A stretch of 64,000 nucleotides of DNA, taken from positions 86,986,001 through 87,050,000 of the forward strand of contig OZ024747.1 of NCBI GenBank assembly GCA_964016885.1. Reading direction: 5' to 3'. This stretch comes from Eledone cirrhosa. Taxonomy: Eukaryota. The translations under genes and the position numbers were made by a program. This document shows, in pieces, positions 2,048 through 59,760 of the stretch. Within the stretch, counting starts at the first letter, position 1; each line of letters begins with the position of its first letter. The notes under the pieces were generated by a model, which saw only the letters and a list, made by a program, of their open reading frames with translations, was not told the DNA's origin and did not search any database.

Positions 2048-4318
2048 TTAAACCTTATTTAATGTTGGTCTATATTTTTGAATAAACATATTTTCCTTAT
2101 TTATTCGCATTTGTTCTGTTGTATTGTTAGCGCAAAGGTAAAATGGGAAGACTTGGAATTTGGGTGTCTTATTACTTGCGCAAATGTCTAGATGTGCACT
2201 TAGTGGTATTTGTCTCGTGGTTGGATCTCGTAATTGTTGGCGATGAACTGTCATTCTGTTTCTGAGTGTGAGTTTAGTTTGTCCTATATAATCTTCATTG
2301 CATCCTTTACATTTAATGGCATAAATTAGATTTTTTGATGAGCAAGTGAAGTGATTTTTTACAGTAAAATTTTGTCCTGATTTAAATGTATACGTGATGC
2401 CTTCAATGAGGTGAGTGCAGGTTCCACAATTAGAGCGACCACATTTTTTGATACTTGGTTGTGGGTTTGTGGTAGGTAATTTGGCATTGGTGAGTAATGT
2501 TTTCAGTGATTTTGGTTGTCTTTTGCTTTTGATTATTTTGTGTGTTTCAAGGGCTTTTTTCATTCTTGGGTTTTGTTTTAGTAGTGGGATGTTATTGTGA
2601 ATAGTGTTGTAAGCTTCCGCATTTCTTGGGTTGTGTGTTGAGATATATGATAGAATATTGGACGTACCTTGAATTTGTTTCTGTTTCCGTAATTCATCAA
2701 TGCCTATTGCTTTAGCCCTTTCTATTCCATTATTTATTAGTAATAGTGGGTACTCTCTCTCAAGTAGAATTTCCTTTAATTCTTGAAGTCTTTTATTTCG
2801 CGTTTCATAATTGGAGACAATTGTGCAAATTCTTCTTGCTAGGTTAAAAGGAATGTTCGTCTTCGTGTGCTTTGGATGGTTGGAGGTGAATAGCAGATAT
2901 TGTTTGGAATCTGTTGGTTTGTAGTGTATGTCAGTTTCGATATTTGTGTCTTTTTTTGTGATTAAGATGTCCAGAAATGGGAGTTGATCTTGGCTGTATT
3001 CCATTGTGAATTGGATGTGGTTATTGATGCCGTTTATTAAGTTTTTGAAATCCTTCAGTTGGTCGAGTGTGTGGGACCAAAGAATGAGGCAATCATCCAA
3101 GTAGCGTTTCCAATTCTCTGATAAATATTTGTGGAAGTTCAATCCGTATTTTGATTTGGACTGTTCATATATCTGGACTTCTAAGTATGCCATGACTAAG
3201 TTGGCATAAGTTGGAGCGGCTTTTGTGCCCATCGCAGTCCCCGATATTTGCTTGTAAGTATTGCCATCGAAATCAAAAAAGTTGTTCTGTAGGATGAATT
3301 TTAATCCCTCGGTGATGAAGCTTTTTTCTATTCTGTCAGGTATCTCATTGGGATATTTCTCTAGCCAGAATCCTATTGCTTCTAGTCCGTATTGGTGTGG
3401 GATCGTTGTGTAGAGATTCACTACATCGAAAGACACAATAATAGTGTCGTTGTTGACATGTTTGGGGAGGTGGTTTAAGAGGTCCAGATCGTCTCTTACA
3501 AGGCTTGGTATGTGTTTCAGTATTGGTTTCAGTAGTATGTCTATAAAGTTGCTCAATCTGTGTGTTTCACATTGTGGGCCCGCTACAATTGGTCTTAATT
3601 TAAGGTCTGTGGGGTATTGTGTGTTCACGCAGGCTGAGGTGGATTGTTTACAGGCATCGTTGATTATTTTACATTTGTGGATCTTCGGAAGTCCGTAAAG
3701 GTTGCTGGTTTTGTATTCAAAATTTGTTAAATAATCGCGTTCCTTTTTAGTTAGGTCTTCCTGGTATCGATAAATCAGTGTGTTTAATTTGGTCATTATT
3801 TTTGATTGCTGGTAGTTTTTTACTCTTTCATAGTAATTAGCATTTTGTAAGAGAGAGAACATAGAATTTTTATATTTTTCAGCCTCCATAATGACAACAG
3901 TACTTCCCTTGTCCGCTTCCTTAATTACAATGTCCGGATTGTTTTTTAGTTCATGGATAATCTCCCATTCCCTTCGACTTGTGTTGGGTTTGGGTTTAGG
4001 TTGCGGTAGTTCATGGTATGGGAAGGTAGCTATGTGGTCACAAAATTTGTCCAGAACTCTGTTTCTACCTTTTGTTGGGTTGTAGCTGCTTTTATTCCGT
4101 ACAATTGATTCGTCGTTATTCTCCTTGTCAAAGAATTCCTCTGTGAGACGTAATTTTCTACAGAAGTGTGAGATATCGTCATTTATCTCGTTGGGGTTAG
4201 GATATTGTGGTGTTGGTGTGAATTTCAGACCTTTGGAGAGAATTTTTACTTGTTGGGCTGAGAGGTTTGTATTTGAAATGTTAATTATTTTCGGTTTTTC
4301 AAAATCGGTTTGTGCCAC
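2048..4318 (-). CDS. PLE reverse transcriptase + C-terminal GIY-YIG endonuclease (ORF2), uninterrupted
   Basis: LSKGLKF, ADKG, YGLPKIHK, LRPIV, SFDVVNLYT, GTAMGT, RYLDD, LPFLD, HP motifs; Cys linker CGRSNCGTC; NLIYAIKCKGCNEDYIGQT...RMTVH. The listed start is GTG, not ATG. Confidence 0.95.
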   Translation of the reverse strand: MAQTDFEKPKIINISNTNLSAQQVKILSKGLKFTPTPQYPNPNEINDDISHFCRKLRLTEEFFDKENNDESIVRNKSSYNPTKGRNRVLDKFCDHIATFPYHELPQPKPKPNTSRREWEIIHELKNNPDIVIKEADKGSTVVIMEAEKYKNSMFSLLQNANYYERVKNYQQSKIMTKLNTLIYRYQEDLTKKERDYLTNFEYKTSNLYGLPKIHKCKIINDACKQSTSACVNTQYPTDLKLRPIVAGPQCETHRLSNFIDILLKPILKHIPSLVRDDLDLLNHLPKHVNNDTIIVSFDVVNLYTTIPHQYGLEAIGFWLEKYPNEIPDRIEKSFITEGLKFILQNNFFDFDGNTYKQISGTAMGTKAAPTYANLVMAYLEVQIYEQSKSKYGLNFHKYLSENWKRYLDDCLILWSHTLDQLKDFKNLINGINNHIQFTMEYSQDQLPFLDILITKKDTNIETDIHYKPTDSKQYLLFTSNHPKHTKTNIPFNLARRICTIVSNYETRNKRLQELKEILLEREYPLLLINNGIERAKAIGIDELRKQKQIQGTSNILSYISTHNPRNAEAYNTIHNNIPLLKQNPRMKKALETHKIIKSKRQPKSLKTLLTNAKLPTTNPQPSIKKCGRSNCGTCTHLIEGITYTFKSGQNFTVKNHFTCSSKNLIYAIKCKGCNEDYIGQTKLTLRNRMTVHRQQLRDPTTRQIPLSAHLDICASNKTPKFQVFPFYLCANNTTEQMRINKENMFIQKYRPTLNKV

Positions 4319-5145
4319 CGGGTGTCGTGAGTCCTGTAGCCTTGGTCTAAAAAATGATTTTTCTGGAATGTTTTTTCATTGGTATTATTATATCTAATGG
4401 TATTTCCCCTGTTGTTGTGTGGTCTTGTATAGAAGTTTCGGACGTATTGAGGTTCGGTTTGTTGATAGTCCGGATTGTAGATTTGGTTCCTTTGTGTGGG
4501 TTGGGATCTATGGTTTTGGAACAGGCTCTGTGTGGGCAGGGGTCTACGGTTTTGGAATAGGTTTTGTGTGGGTTGTGATCTGCGGATCAGGTCCTGCCTT
4601 GTGTTCGGGGATCTTTGGTTTTTGTTAGTAGGGTTATAGTTTTGTCTATGGTTTCTGGGATTATCGTTATAGTTTTGCTGGGGGTATGTTGGACGTTTTG
4701 TTACTTTTTTTGTTATTTGTTGTGCATGTGGTGTGTGAGTTTTAGTTTGTTTTAAAAATGGGTTACCTGTATGTTGTTCATTTTTGAAGTCCATTTCGTA
4801 GTTGTTGAACCAGGTGGCGTTTTTTTCCCATCGCTGGAGGGATGTGAGTTCTTCATCCTCACAGTTTTCTTTCCAAAGTTTTAGGGGTTTTTTGTAGAGT
4901 AGGCCTTCAGAGTGCTTTGAGATTTCTGTGTCCATCTGTTGGTCGAGTGACTTGAATTTTTCTTCGTTGGAGTTGGCTCTTAATCGCAACAGTTCTATTT
5001 CTGTTTTAAATTTTTCCAATGCCATCTTTTCCCTAAGTCTTTGTTGGTTTTCTGGTTCATTCGGGATGGGTTTTATTTGGAGTTTTTTGGGGAGGATGAT
5101 TGGGGTAGAGTTGATTCGTGAGATGATTCGTGATGATAGAGATGA
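4285..5145 (-). CDS. Upstream ORF1 of the PLE (charged helical/coiled-coil-like N-part, N/Q/R-rich C-part), open up to the truncation junction
   Basis: ORF 4285-5025 stays open upstream (...PIILPKKLQIKPIPNEPENQQRLREK-MALEK) to the inverted-repeat boundary; overlaps ORF2 in the -1 frame. Confidence 0.7.
   Translation of the reverse strand, partial: SSLSSRIISRINSTPIILPKKLQIKPIPNEPENQQRLREKMALEKFKTEIELLRLRANSNEEKFKSLDQQMDTEISKHSEGLLYKKPLKLWKENCEDEELTSLQRWEKNATWFNNYEMDFKNEQHTGNPFLKQTKTHTPHAQQITKKVTKRPTYPQQNYNDNPRNHRQNYNPTNKNQRSPNTRQDLIRRSQPTQNLFQNRRPLPTQSLFQNHRSQPTQRNQIYNPDYQQTEPQYVRNFYTRPHNNRGNTIRYNNTNEKTFQKNHFLDQGYRTHDTRWHKPILKNRK
4348..4354 (-). other. Candidate -1 ribosomal frameshift slippery heptamer T TTT TTA
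   Basis: ORF1 codons CAT TTT TTA; ORF2 is in the -1 frame and open across this site. Confidence 0.6.
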
Positions 5146-5522
5146 TTCGTGAGCCTCATTTTTTCAAGTAAAAAGAAATTCAAACACTCATATATGAAAA
5201 AACAACCTGTGACAACCCCCCCCCCCCTCTCTTATTTGAAGAACTATTGTAACGCGAAGTGGCGCGAAATTTATTATAATTATTGACAAACCAATCAAAT
5301 TACTTCTCGAAAAACCTGGTTTTCGAGCCAGGTTTTCCATATAAAACAAGTAACATTTAGAGACCAACCAGATGTGAGAAAAACCACAGACCCTCCATCT
5401 CAACTCACCTTTTGAAAAGCAGAAGAACTGCGAAACCGGTAAAGGAACCAAATAAATATATATATTTTTTTTAAAAAATAAGACTTCAGTTGCATTTTCG
5501 ATTTCATCCCTTTTTCTTTATA
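5146..5522. repeat. Inverted pseudo-LTR copy at the 5' truncation point
   Basis: Reverse complement of 888-1257; ends in (TA)n. Confidence 0.95.
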
Positions 5523-12624: not shown

Positions 12625-12706
12625 ATCTCTCGGACAGATTATCCCTAATCTGTTTCGCCCTGAGTGTGTTTGTAACAGATAATCCTGGGCTTCATCAGCG
12701 AGAGAT
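12625..12706 (-). ncRNA. Type I hammerhead ribozyme with long stems
   Basis: atctctcg CTGATGA a gccc...gggc GAA acagatta-ggga-taatctgt C cgagagat; 8-bp stems I and III; lies in a TA-flanked module at ~12478-12912. Confidence 0.9.
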
Positions 12707-18952: not shown

Positions 18953-19179
18953 TGGGTGTTATATATATATATATATAGGCGTAAATGTAAAATCAGGACA
19001 CCAGTAGTCTGGCTGAACTTATCAAGTTGATAAGTTCAGTCAAACTACTGCGTTAGTTCAGAACTAGCCGACTCTTTTCCTATTACCCACTCTACTACCT
19101 ACAATATCGAGTACTCTGGTGCGTTATGGTCCACCTGGTTCCTTACCACACTTCCTTCGTGTGTATATATATATATATA

Positions 19180-19858
19180 TGAAAAAAGTTTGTCCTTCAT
19201 CAGTGATCTTCCAACCATCATAGGCATTTCATCGCTTTAAAGACCATATACCTCCTGTTGGTGCGAGCAACGGCTAAAAAAAGTCGTTGGGACACGTAAA
19301 TAAAGGGGACGCGAGGGTAAACAAACAAAATGGTGAAGCAACAGAAAGCAGCAGTCTCTCTCTCTGTTAGCCTCTTCCTCACCCTTCACTCACTCATTCT
19401 CTGTCACTACTTCTCCTCCTCCTCTTTCTTCCCGTTTGACCTGTGAGTAATTCTTTTCTCTCGCATTCTCGGCCAAGCTGGTCGGAATTTTTTCTCTCTC
19501 TCGTCTACGATTTCACAGAACTTATGTTTACCGAATTCGCAGACCAGACCCCTTCTTCCTCCCGTTAGACCTGTGCGAAATTCCTTCCTTGCTCACATTT
19601 CAACCAGGTTTGATGGTCTTTATTCTCTCGTTCACGATTTCACCGAACTTAAATTCATAGAAATCTGGGACGTGTCTCTTTCTTCCTCACTTTCTGTTGC
19701 TTCACCATTGTGTTTGTTTACCCTCGCGTCCCCTTTATTTACGTGTCCCAACGACTTTTTTTAGCCGTTGCTCGCACCAACCGGAGGTATATGGTCTTTA
19801 AAGCGATGAAATGCCTATGATGGTTTGAAGATCACTGATGAAGGACAAACTTTTTTCA
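19180..19858. mobile_element. MITE/foldback element with ~169 bp TIRs, TA-flanked
   Basis: 19180-19348 is the near-perfect reverse complement of 19690-19858; TA|TGAAAAAAG...CTTTTTTCA|TA. Confidence 0.88.
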
Positions 19859-20291
19859 TATGTAACCCATTTGCAACTCCGCAGCGCCCTTATTATCATA
19901 TATATATATATATAGGGTTTGTAAGGTCTAGTTACTACATGTTCACCAGAGTTGGGCCAGTTCGATACAGATCGACCCTTGAGCAGATCAATAGCGAAAC
20001 GCGTGTCACTACTCAATAAAGGTAATGAAGACATAATAAATCTTCCTTTTTTATTATTATCATTATTAGTGTGTGCGTGTGTGAAGTTTTCTTCGCATAC
20101 CTTACAACTAAATACAACAAGCATGGCGACTGGCTAATGACTGAAACTAGTTAAATAATAAATTATACGTAATAATAATTAACTATAACGAAAATAGACG
20201 TAATTATTTTTCAAAGATATCTCCACCACCACAACTGTATTTAGTGCAATCATTATTTATTTATTACAAATTTGAACATAGGAGCAGCAAC

Positions 20292-20343
<52 letters not shown>

Positions 20344-20829
20344 AAGAGAAAGAGAGAGAGAGAGAGTCAGAGAGAGAGTGCGTATATCTTAAATAGGGAC
20401 AAAGGATGAGAGTATGCGCATGCTTGCGCGTCCGTGTGTATAGGTGTATGTGTTAGAAAGGGAGTGAGAGTGCTGATTTTTATAAGAGTGATAAAGAGTA
20501 CAGTTGTGTACGAAAGAGAGTGTATGTATAAATGAGAGAGTGAGAGAGAATAGTTTGGGTATGTACGAGAGTGTATGTGGAAAGTACAAATTAGGAAAGG
20601 TTTTAAATCATTTTAGATTTAAGTTCATTTGATCCTCGTTCATTTATGATTGTTGTTATGATGATGATCATCATCATCAGTTTCTTCATCTACTACTACT
20701 CCCGTAGAAGGTCTTTACAAGGCTAATCTAAGATTTTACATTTACGCCTATATTTATTCACTCTAAAACACTTAATTATCGTCTAATTATCGTCTTATAC
20801 TCAGTCAACTCTATCTCCACCTTGCAAAG

Positions 20830-22362: not shown

Positions 22363-23343
22363 AAGTGGCGGACTGAGTCTAAAAATATTGGTCGCCAGGA
22401 GATGAAGGGGGCCCACCTACATCTAGAATGCTATCATTTAATTTTTGTAATGAATAAATATCATTTTCGAAAAATACATAAGTGGAAACAAAACAGTGGG
22501 ATCAAATTTTTGCGGAAAAATATCTTACGCGAAATCCAGAGACTTTCAATAATGACCAGAAGTCGACCCTAAATATTACTAATAGCTCTAGGAAAGCTAT
22601 GAACGACAGCACATCTTTTAACATTGATTTTGAAAGTAGGTTTATAATTATCAATTTTCATTATACTTTTGTAGCTGACTCGGTGGCCTAGTTGGGTGAA
22701 CCTGGTCTGAAGTTCGATCCTAGTCGGGAGTAGGGTTCCCGGTAAACCTTTTCAGTTTTTTCTATTTGTTGTAAAATAAAAACTGAAAAGGGTTACATGT
22801 ACCTCTTGACCAGGATTGAACCCTTGACCAGGATTGAACCCAAGGCCAGTATCTCCACCGTCTCTAGTACCTACCGCTAGGCCACAGATACAACTGCGAA
22901 AATTTTATTGAAAATTCATACTTATAAACCTACTTTCAAAATGTTCAAAACAAAGTGTTGCGGTGTCGTTCATGTCTTTCTTAATGTTATTGCTCCTACT
23001 TAAGGTCGACTTCTAAATCATTTGGGTGTTCCATAAACTGCATCATCGTTTTGTTTCTCATCTGTCTAGACTACATTTTAACCTGTAATCCATGTTTCAT
23101 TTCTGTTCCACCTCGTTTCTCTCCTCTCCTTGGTTGACCAAATGCTTTGTTTAAGTGTTTTATTTTATTTTTTTTATTTTATGTTATTCTTTCTCTTAGA
23201 TTTCAGATATTTGTTTTAAAGCAAAGCATTGGCCCGTAAAATACTACGGTGGGCCCTGCAATGCTACTGTGGGCTCTAGCAATGCTACTGTGGGCCCCCT
23301 GGGGCCCCACTTGCCTTTGGGCAACCTGACCAGTCCGCCACTG
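22363..23343. mobile_element. Non-autonomous DNA transposon, hAT-like termini, containing a nested foldback
   Basis: agtggcggactg (22364-22375) / cagtccgccactg (23331-23343), subterminal gggccc repeats; no clear 8-bp TSD. Confidence 0.55.
22551..23022. repeat. Imperfect ~470 bp palindrome with a tRNA-like A/B box in each arm
   Basis: ttttgaaagtaggtttataa / ttataaacctactttcaaaa; agaagtcgacc / ggtcgacttct; ccttttcagtttt / aaaactgaaaagg. Confidence 0.8.
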
Positions 23344-36712: not shown

Positions 36713-38596
36713 TCAATTTGTGACCACAGAGAAAACGGCCGGTTGCACGCTGCCATTCCAACTATCAATACGCATATTTATAAACGGATAATACATCGGT
36801 GAAATGGGTTGTTTTTCATCATCTATACGAAACTTTTCTCTGAAAATAGAATTACAGCTAAACACGCCCATTGTTACTTCATTTAAATTAGATAGAGGGC
36901 TTGGTGGCAATTCAATCCATTTTTTTCCAAGTAATGTATCGTAAACAAAAACTCTCGTGATAAATGGTGCTACGTGTTCCAACCAAAACAATTTCGATGA
37001 GTAAGAGCAATAGTGAACAGATTCAAAGTGAGCCACAAAATAAGGAATATGTTTTGAAAGTGTCACGCTACTAGGGCGGGGTGGGGAGAATGGGACGATC
37101 GGTATATTGGCTGAAATAGTAGTCCTTTGATCAATTATGGATGTGAAAGTAAGTAACCCAGACTTAATCTGATCTATAAAGGGATTGTTTACATTTTCAG
37201 TAACTATTTTTATGCATTCGTTAAAAATAAATACTAAGCAATTTACTGGGACAACCCAAGATTTCGATTCGTAAACAACTTCCAGTCGCTTATTAAAGCT
37301 GTCATAACGTAGAAAAATGAATGTGTCGGTATTCTGGGGATCATTCTTCTCTGACTGACGAGTTGTTATAAGAATAAAAACTATGTCAAAGTTTTTTGAA
37401 TCCGGATATATTTTCATTTTACAGTCACCTTTCCAATCATTAAACATACTGCTGGCCGAGATTTTCCATCCGTTATCGTGGGTTTTAATGTGTAAGGTGA
37501 TGCCTTTATCAGATGGCGTGCAGTAAGCAGCATGCAGTCGATTATTTGAACAGAAATACTGGACAGCCAGTGATGTGTCCATGCTGGGAATTAGGATGAA
37601 AGTTGAGTTCCTGGATCTCATATTCAGCATTTTTATGTTATGCATACGTTCGTCCAAAATAACTATATCATTGTGAAGAATGCCAAGCACTTTGCTTCTC
37701 AAAGCCACGAAGATTTTCGTCCAACTATTCTCTACTGGGAAATAAACCGCTAAAACCTCTCTCTCTTTCAATACCAATATCCAATTTTCATCTAAAAATG
37801 GAGTAATTATTTCACTCCTTCGTTTATTAGAATGTACTCGTTCCAGAAAGTTTTTTATTCGAGGGTTACAATCAGCCGTTTCATTTATTTCTTCAATTTT
37901 ATATTCTAGATATATTTTAGGTATAAACCTTGTGAAATACATATAAGCATCTGGGATTCTTTTATGAAAATCTTCCTCTAGCCAAGAGAGAAGGAATCTA
38001 TAAGCATTAGGCACTCTCCTTGGAAATGGTGCATGATTCATCAAGTAAGACAATTCTATTTTCCCAATAGAATTCAGCAGATTCATTACACTTTCCTCCC
38101 AAAATATTTCCTGCATTAAAATCAAAGCCATTTGTTCAATATCCCAGAAGTAAAGCATTCTCGCAATTCTCCAGATATGTAAACAATTTGAGGGTTTTAT
38201 TCGAGTCAGCAGAAATTGCTTCCCATGAAGCATCAATCGTTTAAATGAGCAACAGTAGCATATTTTCAATATCCCTTTAATGTTGTTTTCATCAAGATAG
38301 ATTTTCCGCTCATAAAGGTAATTTATTATGTCTTCCAAGTCAGAAAAGTTGACATCAAGATGAGAGAGGTCTATAGTAACATGGCAATTGAAAGACACTT
38401 CTGCTTTCAGTTTCTCTTTAAAGTAATCACTTTCTGCTGCCAGAAGAAAGCTGTGTACAGATATTATATTGGAGTTGATTTTCAAACTGACGTCGACATA
38501 TTCCGAGTGTTGATACTGAAGGTACAGTTTTTCAAACATACAGTTTTTAGAGATATCACTAAACACGAACACCGGCTGATTGTTTTCTGCCATCAT
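36713..38596 (-). CDS. BTB/POZ-BACK domain protein (kelch-like family) with divergent C-terminal beta-rich domain; single coding exon
   Basis: 627 aa open frame; YVDVSLKI..VHSFLLAAESDYF..IINYLY (BTB), PSNCLHIWRIA..LLSWLEED (BACK); ttttcag acceptor just upstream of the ATG (38609-38611). Confidence 0.88.
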   Translation of the reverse strand: MMAENNQPVFVFSDISKNCMFEKLYLQYQHSEYVDVSLKINSNIISVHSFLLAAESDYFKEKLKAEVSFNCHVTIDLSHLDVNFSDLEDIINYLYERKIYLDENNIKGILKICYCCSFKRLMLHGKQFLLTRIKPSNCLHIWRIARMLYFWDIEQMALILMQEIFWEESVMNLLNSIGKIELSYLMNHAPFPRRVPNAYRFLLSWLEEDFHKRIPDAYMYFTRFIPKIYLEYKIEEINETADCNPRIKNFLERVHSNKRRSEIITPFLDENWILVLKEREVLAVYFPVENSWTKIFVALRSKVLGILHNDIVILDERMHNIKMLNMRSRNSTFILIPSMDTSLAVQYFCSNNRLHAAYCTPSDKGITLHIKTHDNGWKISASSMFNDWKGDCKMKIYPDSKNFDIVFILITTRQSEKNDPQNTDTFIFLRYDSFNKRLEVVYESKSWVVPVNCLVFIFNECIKIVTENVNNPFIDQIKSGLLTFTSIIDQRTTISANIPIVPFSPPRPSSVTLSKHIPYFVAHFESVHYCSYSSKLFWLEHVAPFITRVFVYDTLLGKKWIELPPSPLSNLNEVTMGVFSCNSIFREKFRIDDEKQPISPMYYPFINMRIDSWNGSVQPAVFSVVTN

Positions 38597-41777: not shown

Positions 41778-42400
41778 ATGAAAATATTCAGGACCCCGAC
41801 GGCTGAGCTCCGGCCGTTTCGACAGATTTAATATAGAAATGCCTCGCGCGCACGCACACAAGCATGAACGCATGCATACATACATACATACATACATACA
41901 TACATACATGGTGGCTGCCAACTCGTTTTCGAGTACGGCCACTACTTTATATCCATGTAGGAGAACTCCTACCGATGCGCTGAACGTGTGTGACTTTTTA
42001 GTCCAGCCAGCGACTTGACAACTCTGGTACAAACACTACACCTGTGACAAATATTGACACATAGTGCTGGGCCCATGGTACCATGTGATGACAAGTGCAG
42101 AAAGATCTCCAGATATAAAGCAATGCCTGTGCCGTGAAGCTTTTATAGTGAGCAAAGGCACTGCACAAAGCCAGTCCCACTCTCTTAACCAAGATACATA
42201 CATACATACATACATACATACATACAGGAAAAGAGTCGAGACCCTGACGGCAGAGCTCAAGCCGTTTCGACGGCTATTTCTGTCCAGAAATACCCGTCAA
42301 AACGGCTTGGGCTCTGCCGTCGGGGTCCTGACTCTTTTCCTATTACCCAAAGTATCGTGTACTCTGGTGCGTTAATGTCCACCTGGTTCCTTACCTTCGT
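41778..42400. mobile_element. TA-flanked non-coding element with a 116-nt hairpin and an extra arm copy
   Basis: Hairpin 42226-42341; arm copy 41789-41825; 3' tail shared with 19070-19160. Confidence 0.7.
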
Positions 42401-42419
42401 TATATATATATATATATAA

Positions 42420-58959: not shown

Positions 58960-59760
58960 ATCTACTTATATATATAACCAGCAATTTCTCTGTCTGTCTG
59001 TCCGACAGTGGAAACACGTGCGTAGAGAGAGAGTGAGAGTGAAAGAAAGAGACAGACTACGAGAGGGGGATAGCGGGAGGGAGAGAGAGAGAGTGAATAG
59101 ACGCTAAAACATTACCTTCCCCTCTCCACTGACTTTGGTCACTGAGGCCGAGGGAATCGCGCTGAGCGCGTCATAATGACGTAATGCAGACAGCCAGACA
59201 TACAGACAGATATTATAAGGGCGCAACGTTATATCTATGTATCTATCTAAAAAGAAAGACTAAGAATTATATAGAGAGAACGCTAAATCGCCTAATGCGG
59301 TCCCTAGGGCATTGAAAATTTGAAATAATGTTTGCTCAAAACACTCACAGGACCATAAGTATTACATGTCTAAAGTTTGAAAACAATCGGTTGGATGGTT
59401 CTCAAGTTTTAGTGAGCTGACAGACATTCTCTGTTTTAGATATATAGACTAGCAGAAAACCGCCCTGCATGTGGTTTTCTGCTAGTCTATATATATAAAA
59501 CTGAGGCTGTCTGTCTGTCTACTAAAACGGTCGGCACACATCTCCTCTTAAACCGTACGTTCAAATTTCGGTGAAATTGCTACACTTTTAGATGAAGGTC
59601 CGGCGGAGGCATCGGTCAAAAAAATGTTCAAATCAACCCACGCCAAGTGCAAAAATCGAATTTGTAATGTATTGATTTTTCAGTTCAAATGTATAAATAG
59701 ATGAGACGAGTTATTTCCCTTTTATGGCGTAATTTGTTTATTGAACAAACTACGCGTACA
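58960..59760. mobile_element. Cluster of Helitron-like non-autonomous fragments (relatives at ~25355-25607)
   Basis: TCTATATATATAAAAC..(CTGT)n starts on both strands, CTAG ends; 59170-59225 is the reverse complement of 25562-25607. Confidence 0.6.

Follow-up and report, generated by a model that had tools for sequence, protein, structure and literature searches.

A 116-nt hairpin carrying hammerhead-type half motifs in Eledone cirrhosa is probably an inverted insertion of a Penelope-like element

Insertions of endonuclease-bearing Penelope-like elements (PLEs) have been described as inverted 5'-truncated copies with palindromic junctions and one-sided tails (PMC8557442, PMC3846280), and at AT-rich DNA both strands were reported to be cut, with two internal start sites explaining the tail (PMC11167929). 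PLE hammerheads occur as opposite-strand pairs of motifs, a U3-A8 core variant is on record (PMC4209133), and a nomenclature of hammerhead blocks, including type CSG, is available (PMC10085705). The role of the hammerhead in PLEs is unsettled, and its cleavage was found to be dispensable in vitro (PMC11167929). For this reason a half ribozyme conserved without its core would, if true, matter, and a family conserving such a half would allow a direct test of what the hammerhead does in these elements.

The hairpin studied here occupies positions 42226-42341 of the window, the whole 64-kb stretch of E. cirrhosa DNA that was analysed. Repeats abound in this animal DNA, which has long runs of (TA)n and contains ORFs of LINEs and PLEs. 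Recomputation returned the same geometry as the original prediction: 116 nt with 56-nt arms, a GTCC loop and six non-complementary pairs (42238/42329, 42239/42328, 42245/42322, 42257/42310, 42268/42299 and 42274/42293). The structure is far more stable than expected by chance on either strand (z -13.2), none of 200 shuffles being equally stable. The left arm (42226-42281, minus strand) is an inverted 5'-truncated copy of an element end without a tail, and the right arm (42286-42341, plus strand) is a direct 5'-truncated copy followed by a one-sided tail (42342-42400, plus strand). The tail measures 59 nt, compared with ~79 nt in the family, and lacks 12 nt and 8 nt that other copies have. The loop (42282-42285, plus strand) is family sequence and part of the direct copy, with loose ends behind 42282, and the direct copy reaches upstream by 3-4 nt more than the inverted one. 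On the left the insertion is flanked by (ATAC)n (42196-42225), where an older repeat remnant (41910-42190) ends, and on the right by (TA)n (42401-42418). A target-site duplication is unreadable in the flanking microsatellite; the outer ends of the element are fixed and the centres variable.

Similar to published PLE insertions (PMC8557442, PMC3846280, PMC11167929), the hairpin combines head-to-head copies whose 3' ends point outward, an inverted 5'-truncated copy lying beside a direct one, a tail at one end only, an AT-rich microsatellite target and a hammerhead-type motif near the end. It differs from the insertions described there in having no linked ORF and no visible CUGANGA block, and its family tail of ~79 nt exceeds the published 30-40 nt, a point against the PLE reading, though it is near the ~60 nt of two control elements in the window. 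We put at roughly 0.68 the probability that the hairpin consists of two head-to-head 5'-truncated copies of an element end, likely from one insertion by a PLE reverse transcriptase-endonuclease acting in trans. The locus likely follows the known PLE inverted-insertion pattern and would then be an ordinary, tidy and very small example of it. The PLE protein, supplied in trans, would nick an AT-rich microsatellite, and reverse transcription from two internal RNA start sites ~60-80 nt apart would yield one copy with the tail and one without. Both copies would end just upstream of GAAA and be joined at their 5' ends, either as two primed strands or by self-priming, leaving the 56-bp duplex as a by-product of insertion, by now decayed. 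The CUGANGA strand would, as we propose, be missing because the copies are truncated or diverged on that side, and not because fold-back synthesis replaced it.

The two control elements show the same layout of head-to-head copies with a one-sided tail, together with complete hammerheads. The element at 89-641 is a PLE-type end in which an inverted copy is fused to a truncated direct copy, followed by a longer direct copy in partial tandem; its hammerhead, at 182 (minus strand), is complete with a U3-A8 core, and its one-sided tail measures ~60 nt. The inverted repeats at 888-1257 and 5146-5522 are 97% identical, likewise carry a ~60-nt one-sided tail, and contain minimal UUGAAAA-core (U3-A8) hammerheads at 997 (minus) and 5412 (plus). 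Between them lies a PLE ORF of 775 codons (2051-4375, minus strand) encoding a reverse transcriptase and a GIY-YIG endonuclease; the RVT_1 match of 28.7 bits is just under the cutoff of 29.6, while the GIY-YIG match is above its cutoff. No reverse transcriptase or endonuclease ORF linked to the hairpin family was found, the PLE ORF of the window having different ends. The assignment to a PLE-end family made in the original prediction agrees with the shared layout and with the very high copy number described below. A separate canonical hammerhead at 755-799 scores 31.7 bits against Rfam, below the gathering score of 34.

The state of the arms fits a single event followed by decay. The same outer subfamily segment is present in both arms, which makes one template and one event likely. 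In five of the six mismatches the commoner family letter restores pairing, identifying two private changes in the left arm (42238 and 42245) and three in the right (42293, 42299 and 42310); the commoner letter at 42299 accounts for 47% in sequencing run X1 and 83% in run X21. For 42239/42328 the family letters do not assign the changed side. As these five mismatches are private decay, there is no sign that the long duplex is being maintained. The mismatches also speak against the hairpin being an assembly artefact, as do independent hairpin-spanning contigs from two runs, with 3-22 differences, and fold-back reads with six starts in a third. None of the contig pieces listed spans the whole stretch, and we nevertheless consider an artefact extremely unlikely.

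Read on the minus strand from 42271 to 42240, the left arm presents the GAAA and cleavage-site (G+S) blocks of a hammerhead in the order stem II 3' strand, GAAA (42268-42265), stem III (5 bp, with a near-palindromic loop), GUC (42248-42246) and stem I 3' strand. The corresponding block of the right arm is at 42296-42327, where G12 has become A at 42299 and GAAA thus reads AAAA; the left arm and a third arm retain the GAAA block, stem III and a UH cleavage site. The third arm (41778-41845, minus strand) had been predicted at 41789-41825 with a different loop, and was recovered as a copy of another loop subfamily without a tail, 83% identical over 48 nt (41823 to 41776), with an intact GAAA in its G+S block (41792-41823). 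It is possibly the remnant of a second fold-back, given a weak match (8 of 9 letters) to the start of the direct copy near 41835-41843. The half motif occurs four times in the window, compared with a mean of 0.7 and a maximum of 2 in 40 shuffles. In viral contigs, 98 of the 122 listed matches to the 17 fixed letters of the arm motif are part of a full hammerhead, of type II in 91 cases, type I in 6 and both in 1; the same holds for 74 of 96 distinct contexts among the matches listed. On these sequence grounds the arm is, as a motif, a real hammerhead GAAA/stem III/GUC block, in line with the predicted reading of the arm. The viral matches include a large type II hammerhead family, many of its members near the ends of ~13-kb contigs, with CUGAUGA, UUGAUAA, UUGAUGA and CCGAUGA cores. 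We read the letters common to the arm and the viral type II hammerheads as convergence, no homology being seen beyond the motif: the 17 letters surrounding GAAA and GUC are identical in both, and the viral core lies downstream after a stem I hairpin, whereas the tail of the hairpin family has none.

None of the three window copies of the arm completes a hammerhead. The original prediction had noted that an intact CUGANGA strand is missing; CUGANGA alone is too strict a test, because two other hammerheads of the window have U3-A8 cores, and no stem-forming U3-A8 variant adjoins any of the three arms either. The only core-like word within 300 nt of them is one TTGACAA, 281 nt upstream and inside an unrelated repeat. 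The tail holds no core word for a type II reading with the core downstream, and a Naiad-type permuted reading was rejected by eye, the cleavage-site block being absent from loop II. Rfam gives no hammerhead match at the hairpin locus. Since the core block was looked for and is absent, hairpin 42226-42341 is not a hammerhead ribozyme, and this copy is predicted not to cleave. Compared with the metazoan PLE hammerheads as presented in PMC4209133, the arm has the same type I GAAA/GUC order, a G10.1-C11.1-type stem end and a palindromic loop III, but its stem III is 5-6 bp long instead of the usual 0-2 and the first core half was not found. Two more motifs resembling a hammerhead, both decayed but with GAAA, stem III and GUC, lie at 19975-20010 (plus) and 12640-12690 (minus), the second with a 7-bp stem III.

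The family to which the arm belongs was followed in four of 23 sequencing runs (X1, X4, X5 and X21) compared with 42222-42402 at 80% likeness. The 181 nt matched 8,933 contigs in X1, which may be the source sample, 179 in X4 and 11 in X5, and 17,645 of 12.5 million raw reads in X21; X5 carries another organism label, and the family is thus present in a second organism. Summed depth in X1, which is no direct copy number, reached 3.0 million over the left-arm GAAA/stem III, compared with 0.6 million over the right arm, 0.78 million in the tail and 0.07-0.12 million where the loop is crossed; a family of 10^4-10^5 copies is a rough estimate from these data. The family unit is arm plus tail, and beyond its outer end the arm runs into (TA)n, in some copies directly and in others by way of the tail. 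A fold-back at 42282 is present in 14 X1 contigs, and the loop is spanned by 8 of 8 X1 pieces listed and 3 of 8 X4 pieces listed. The hairpin form is thus multi-copy, a point that the original prediction had set out for checking, yet hairpins with this centre make up at most ~4-5% of arms, because the loop depth caps them. In other copies the inverted arm is joined to a tail cut at 42340, 42361, 42364, 42368 or 42377, giving at least six join points that point to variable 5' truncation; the tail joins could instead be later right-arm deletions, which would count against the PLE reading. Joints in X21 between 42224-42250 and 42340-42349, labelled as opposite-strand, were left out of the hairpin count and read as plain arm-plus-tail copies, their arm fitting the left arm better.

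Three exact family patterns gave no match in viral contigs, and two patterns gave none in bacterial and archaeal genomes; the single family-motif match in metagenome contigs shares a stretch of only 25 nt and was taken as chance. No publication describing the family was found among titles and abstract openings; Repbase and Dfam lay outside this search, and the family may already be catalogued there.

The missing strand was sought in the sequence upstream of GAAA, visible as seven consensuses of 19-30 nt each among 24 of 301 loose-end rows. None of the seven contains a core, one of them being from a contig that is multi-copy in the second organism. They thus do not demonstrate that an intact type I hammerhead was simply truncated, a point against the preferred reading. 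The same result bears on the predicted mechanism, in which fold-back DNA synthesis replaced the CUGANGA strand of an intact hammerhead end by a mirror copy of the GAAA half. Fold-back was not what cost these copies their enzyme strand, because non-hairpin copies also lack the core in all seven visible consensuses, and the loop-spanning depth again confines hairpins to a small minority. Other features are in keeping with such a replacement: self-priming has been proposed for palindromic PLE junctions in the account given by PMC3846280, in three of the seven consensuses a GGCT(T)A strand could pair as stem II, with loops of differing length, and before one of these strands (X4, 5 contigs) stands ATAA; these are the last letters of a UUGAUAA core, which would fit such a core just beyond the visible sequence. 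We regard overwriting of the enzyme strand as quite unlikely.

A related copy near 19 kb (18976-19160, plus strand) also bears on fold-back replacement. As predicted, it shares the tail of the hairpin copy behind a different hairpin: the match between 42330-42395 and 19070-19147 is 78% identical with a 12-nt gap, and the full tail extends over 19070-19160. Its hairpin (19002-19050) has two TTGATAA words in inverted orientation at its centre, which counts in favour of replacement by fold-back, and where stem II would be there is a hairpin of 7 bp; the GAAA/stem III/GUC block is gone from this copy. A profile search found no further arms or tails in the window. The outer end of the copy (18975-18994) has a 20-nt exact inverted match at 20732-20751, 1.7 kb off, and directly after the copy lies a MITE-like element (19174-19864) with inverted ends of 175 bp that are 98% identical.

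The conserved half could also be the substrate part of a discontinuous hammerhead, with the core strand far upstream or on another RNA. The depth peak falls exactly on the G+S block while the flanks vary by subfamily, and the three most frequent stem III changes (42249, 42264 and 42303) each replace C by U on the GAAA strand and leave a G-U pair in place. A natural bipartite hammerhead has been described (PMC6765202), and PLE hammerheads are reported to work as dimers (PMC4209133). However, the three changes are CpG transitions as well, and no two-sided stem III change was seen among 40 of 90 variant rows. The original prediction had looked to a family member with the core, or to covariation in stem III; the visible loose-end rows and these variant rows contain neither. 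Its suggestion of substrate halves for trans-cleavage is not supported either: a search of the window for an enzyme strand whose stems would match came up empty, and in the hairpin copy the half is locked in a 56-bp duplex, with G12 missing from one arm. We judge this explanation very unlikely for the hairpin. The wider proposition, a family of ~10^4-10^5 copies in at least two species that keeps GAAA/stem III/GUC under selection as a split ribozyme, its core far upstream or on another RNA, is improbable as well, somewhat less severely so.

Helentron/Helitron2-like elements have asymmetric inverted repeats, and MITE- and Helentron-type DNA elements have fixed termini and a fixed target-site duplication or a 3' stem-loop. 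The locus could accordingly be pictured as a non-autonomous DNA element of either type, with a captured or imitated hammerhead half in its terminal repeat, the hairpin being a middle-deleted copy. The left repeat is terminal and the right one subterminal, the copy number is very high, no upstream core is visible, and the GAAA strand alternatively folds as a simple 6-bp hairpin around CGAA. Against this picture, centres and joins differ between copies, folding of both strands revealed no strong 3' stem-loop in the tail, and the layout is common to the two window elements with complete hammerheads. Summed arm depth also exceeds tail depth 2.6-fold in X21 and 4.6-fold in X1, although only ~1 to 1.35-fold in X5 and X4. 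A DNA element is therefore unlikely in our view, and the PLE insertion is retained as the preferred reading.

Two further groups of PLE-related sequences invite comparison. Non-LTR retrozymes (bioRxiv 10.64898/2026.07.22.740005) are, similar to this family, non-coding, PLE-related and hammerhead-linked, but are defined there by a tandem arrangement in which every unit has its own complete type I hammerhead, whereas the hairpin family is inverted, dispersed and incomplete. Neither tandem units nor a complete core is present at the hairpin locus, and a retrozyme was rejected. Naiads are stated to lack canonical hammerheads, some of their 3' ends being labelled 'HHR_half_core' in the supplement (PMC8557442); like the hairpin family, they have (TA)n targets and cephalopod members. 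Their blocks stand in another order, while in the hairpin family G and S are adjacent, and five hairpin-family motifs had no match in the supplement, nor did inspection by eye of the Naiad_Obim and Naiad_Ovul ends reveal any.

By eye, several of the published Naiad 3' ends in this supplement pair up as non-circularly permuted hammerheads. Three nematode-part records have core, cleavage site and GAAA in that order (type CSG); their stems I, II and III are of 5 bp each and covary from record to record. In Naiad_Obim, Naiad_Ovul and further records of the supplement the order is cleavage site, GAAA, core, and the strand that closes stem II precedes the cleavage site instead of following the core. 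No report of hammerhead pairing in Naiad 3' ends was found in the literature consulted, and these ends may be more interesting than the hairpin itself.

Palindromic repeats are editing targets according to PMC5625713, which leaves octopus repeats unannotated. If transcribed, the hairpin is a putative source of editable double-stranded RNA. Two unrelated long hairpins are present in the window at 59406-59528 (82% over 124 nt) and 22558-23014 (63% over 494 nt), and an uninterrupted 627-codon frame at 36716-38596 (minus strand) encodes an N-terminal BTB domain.
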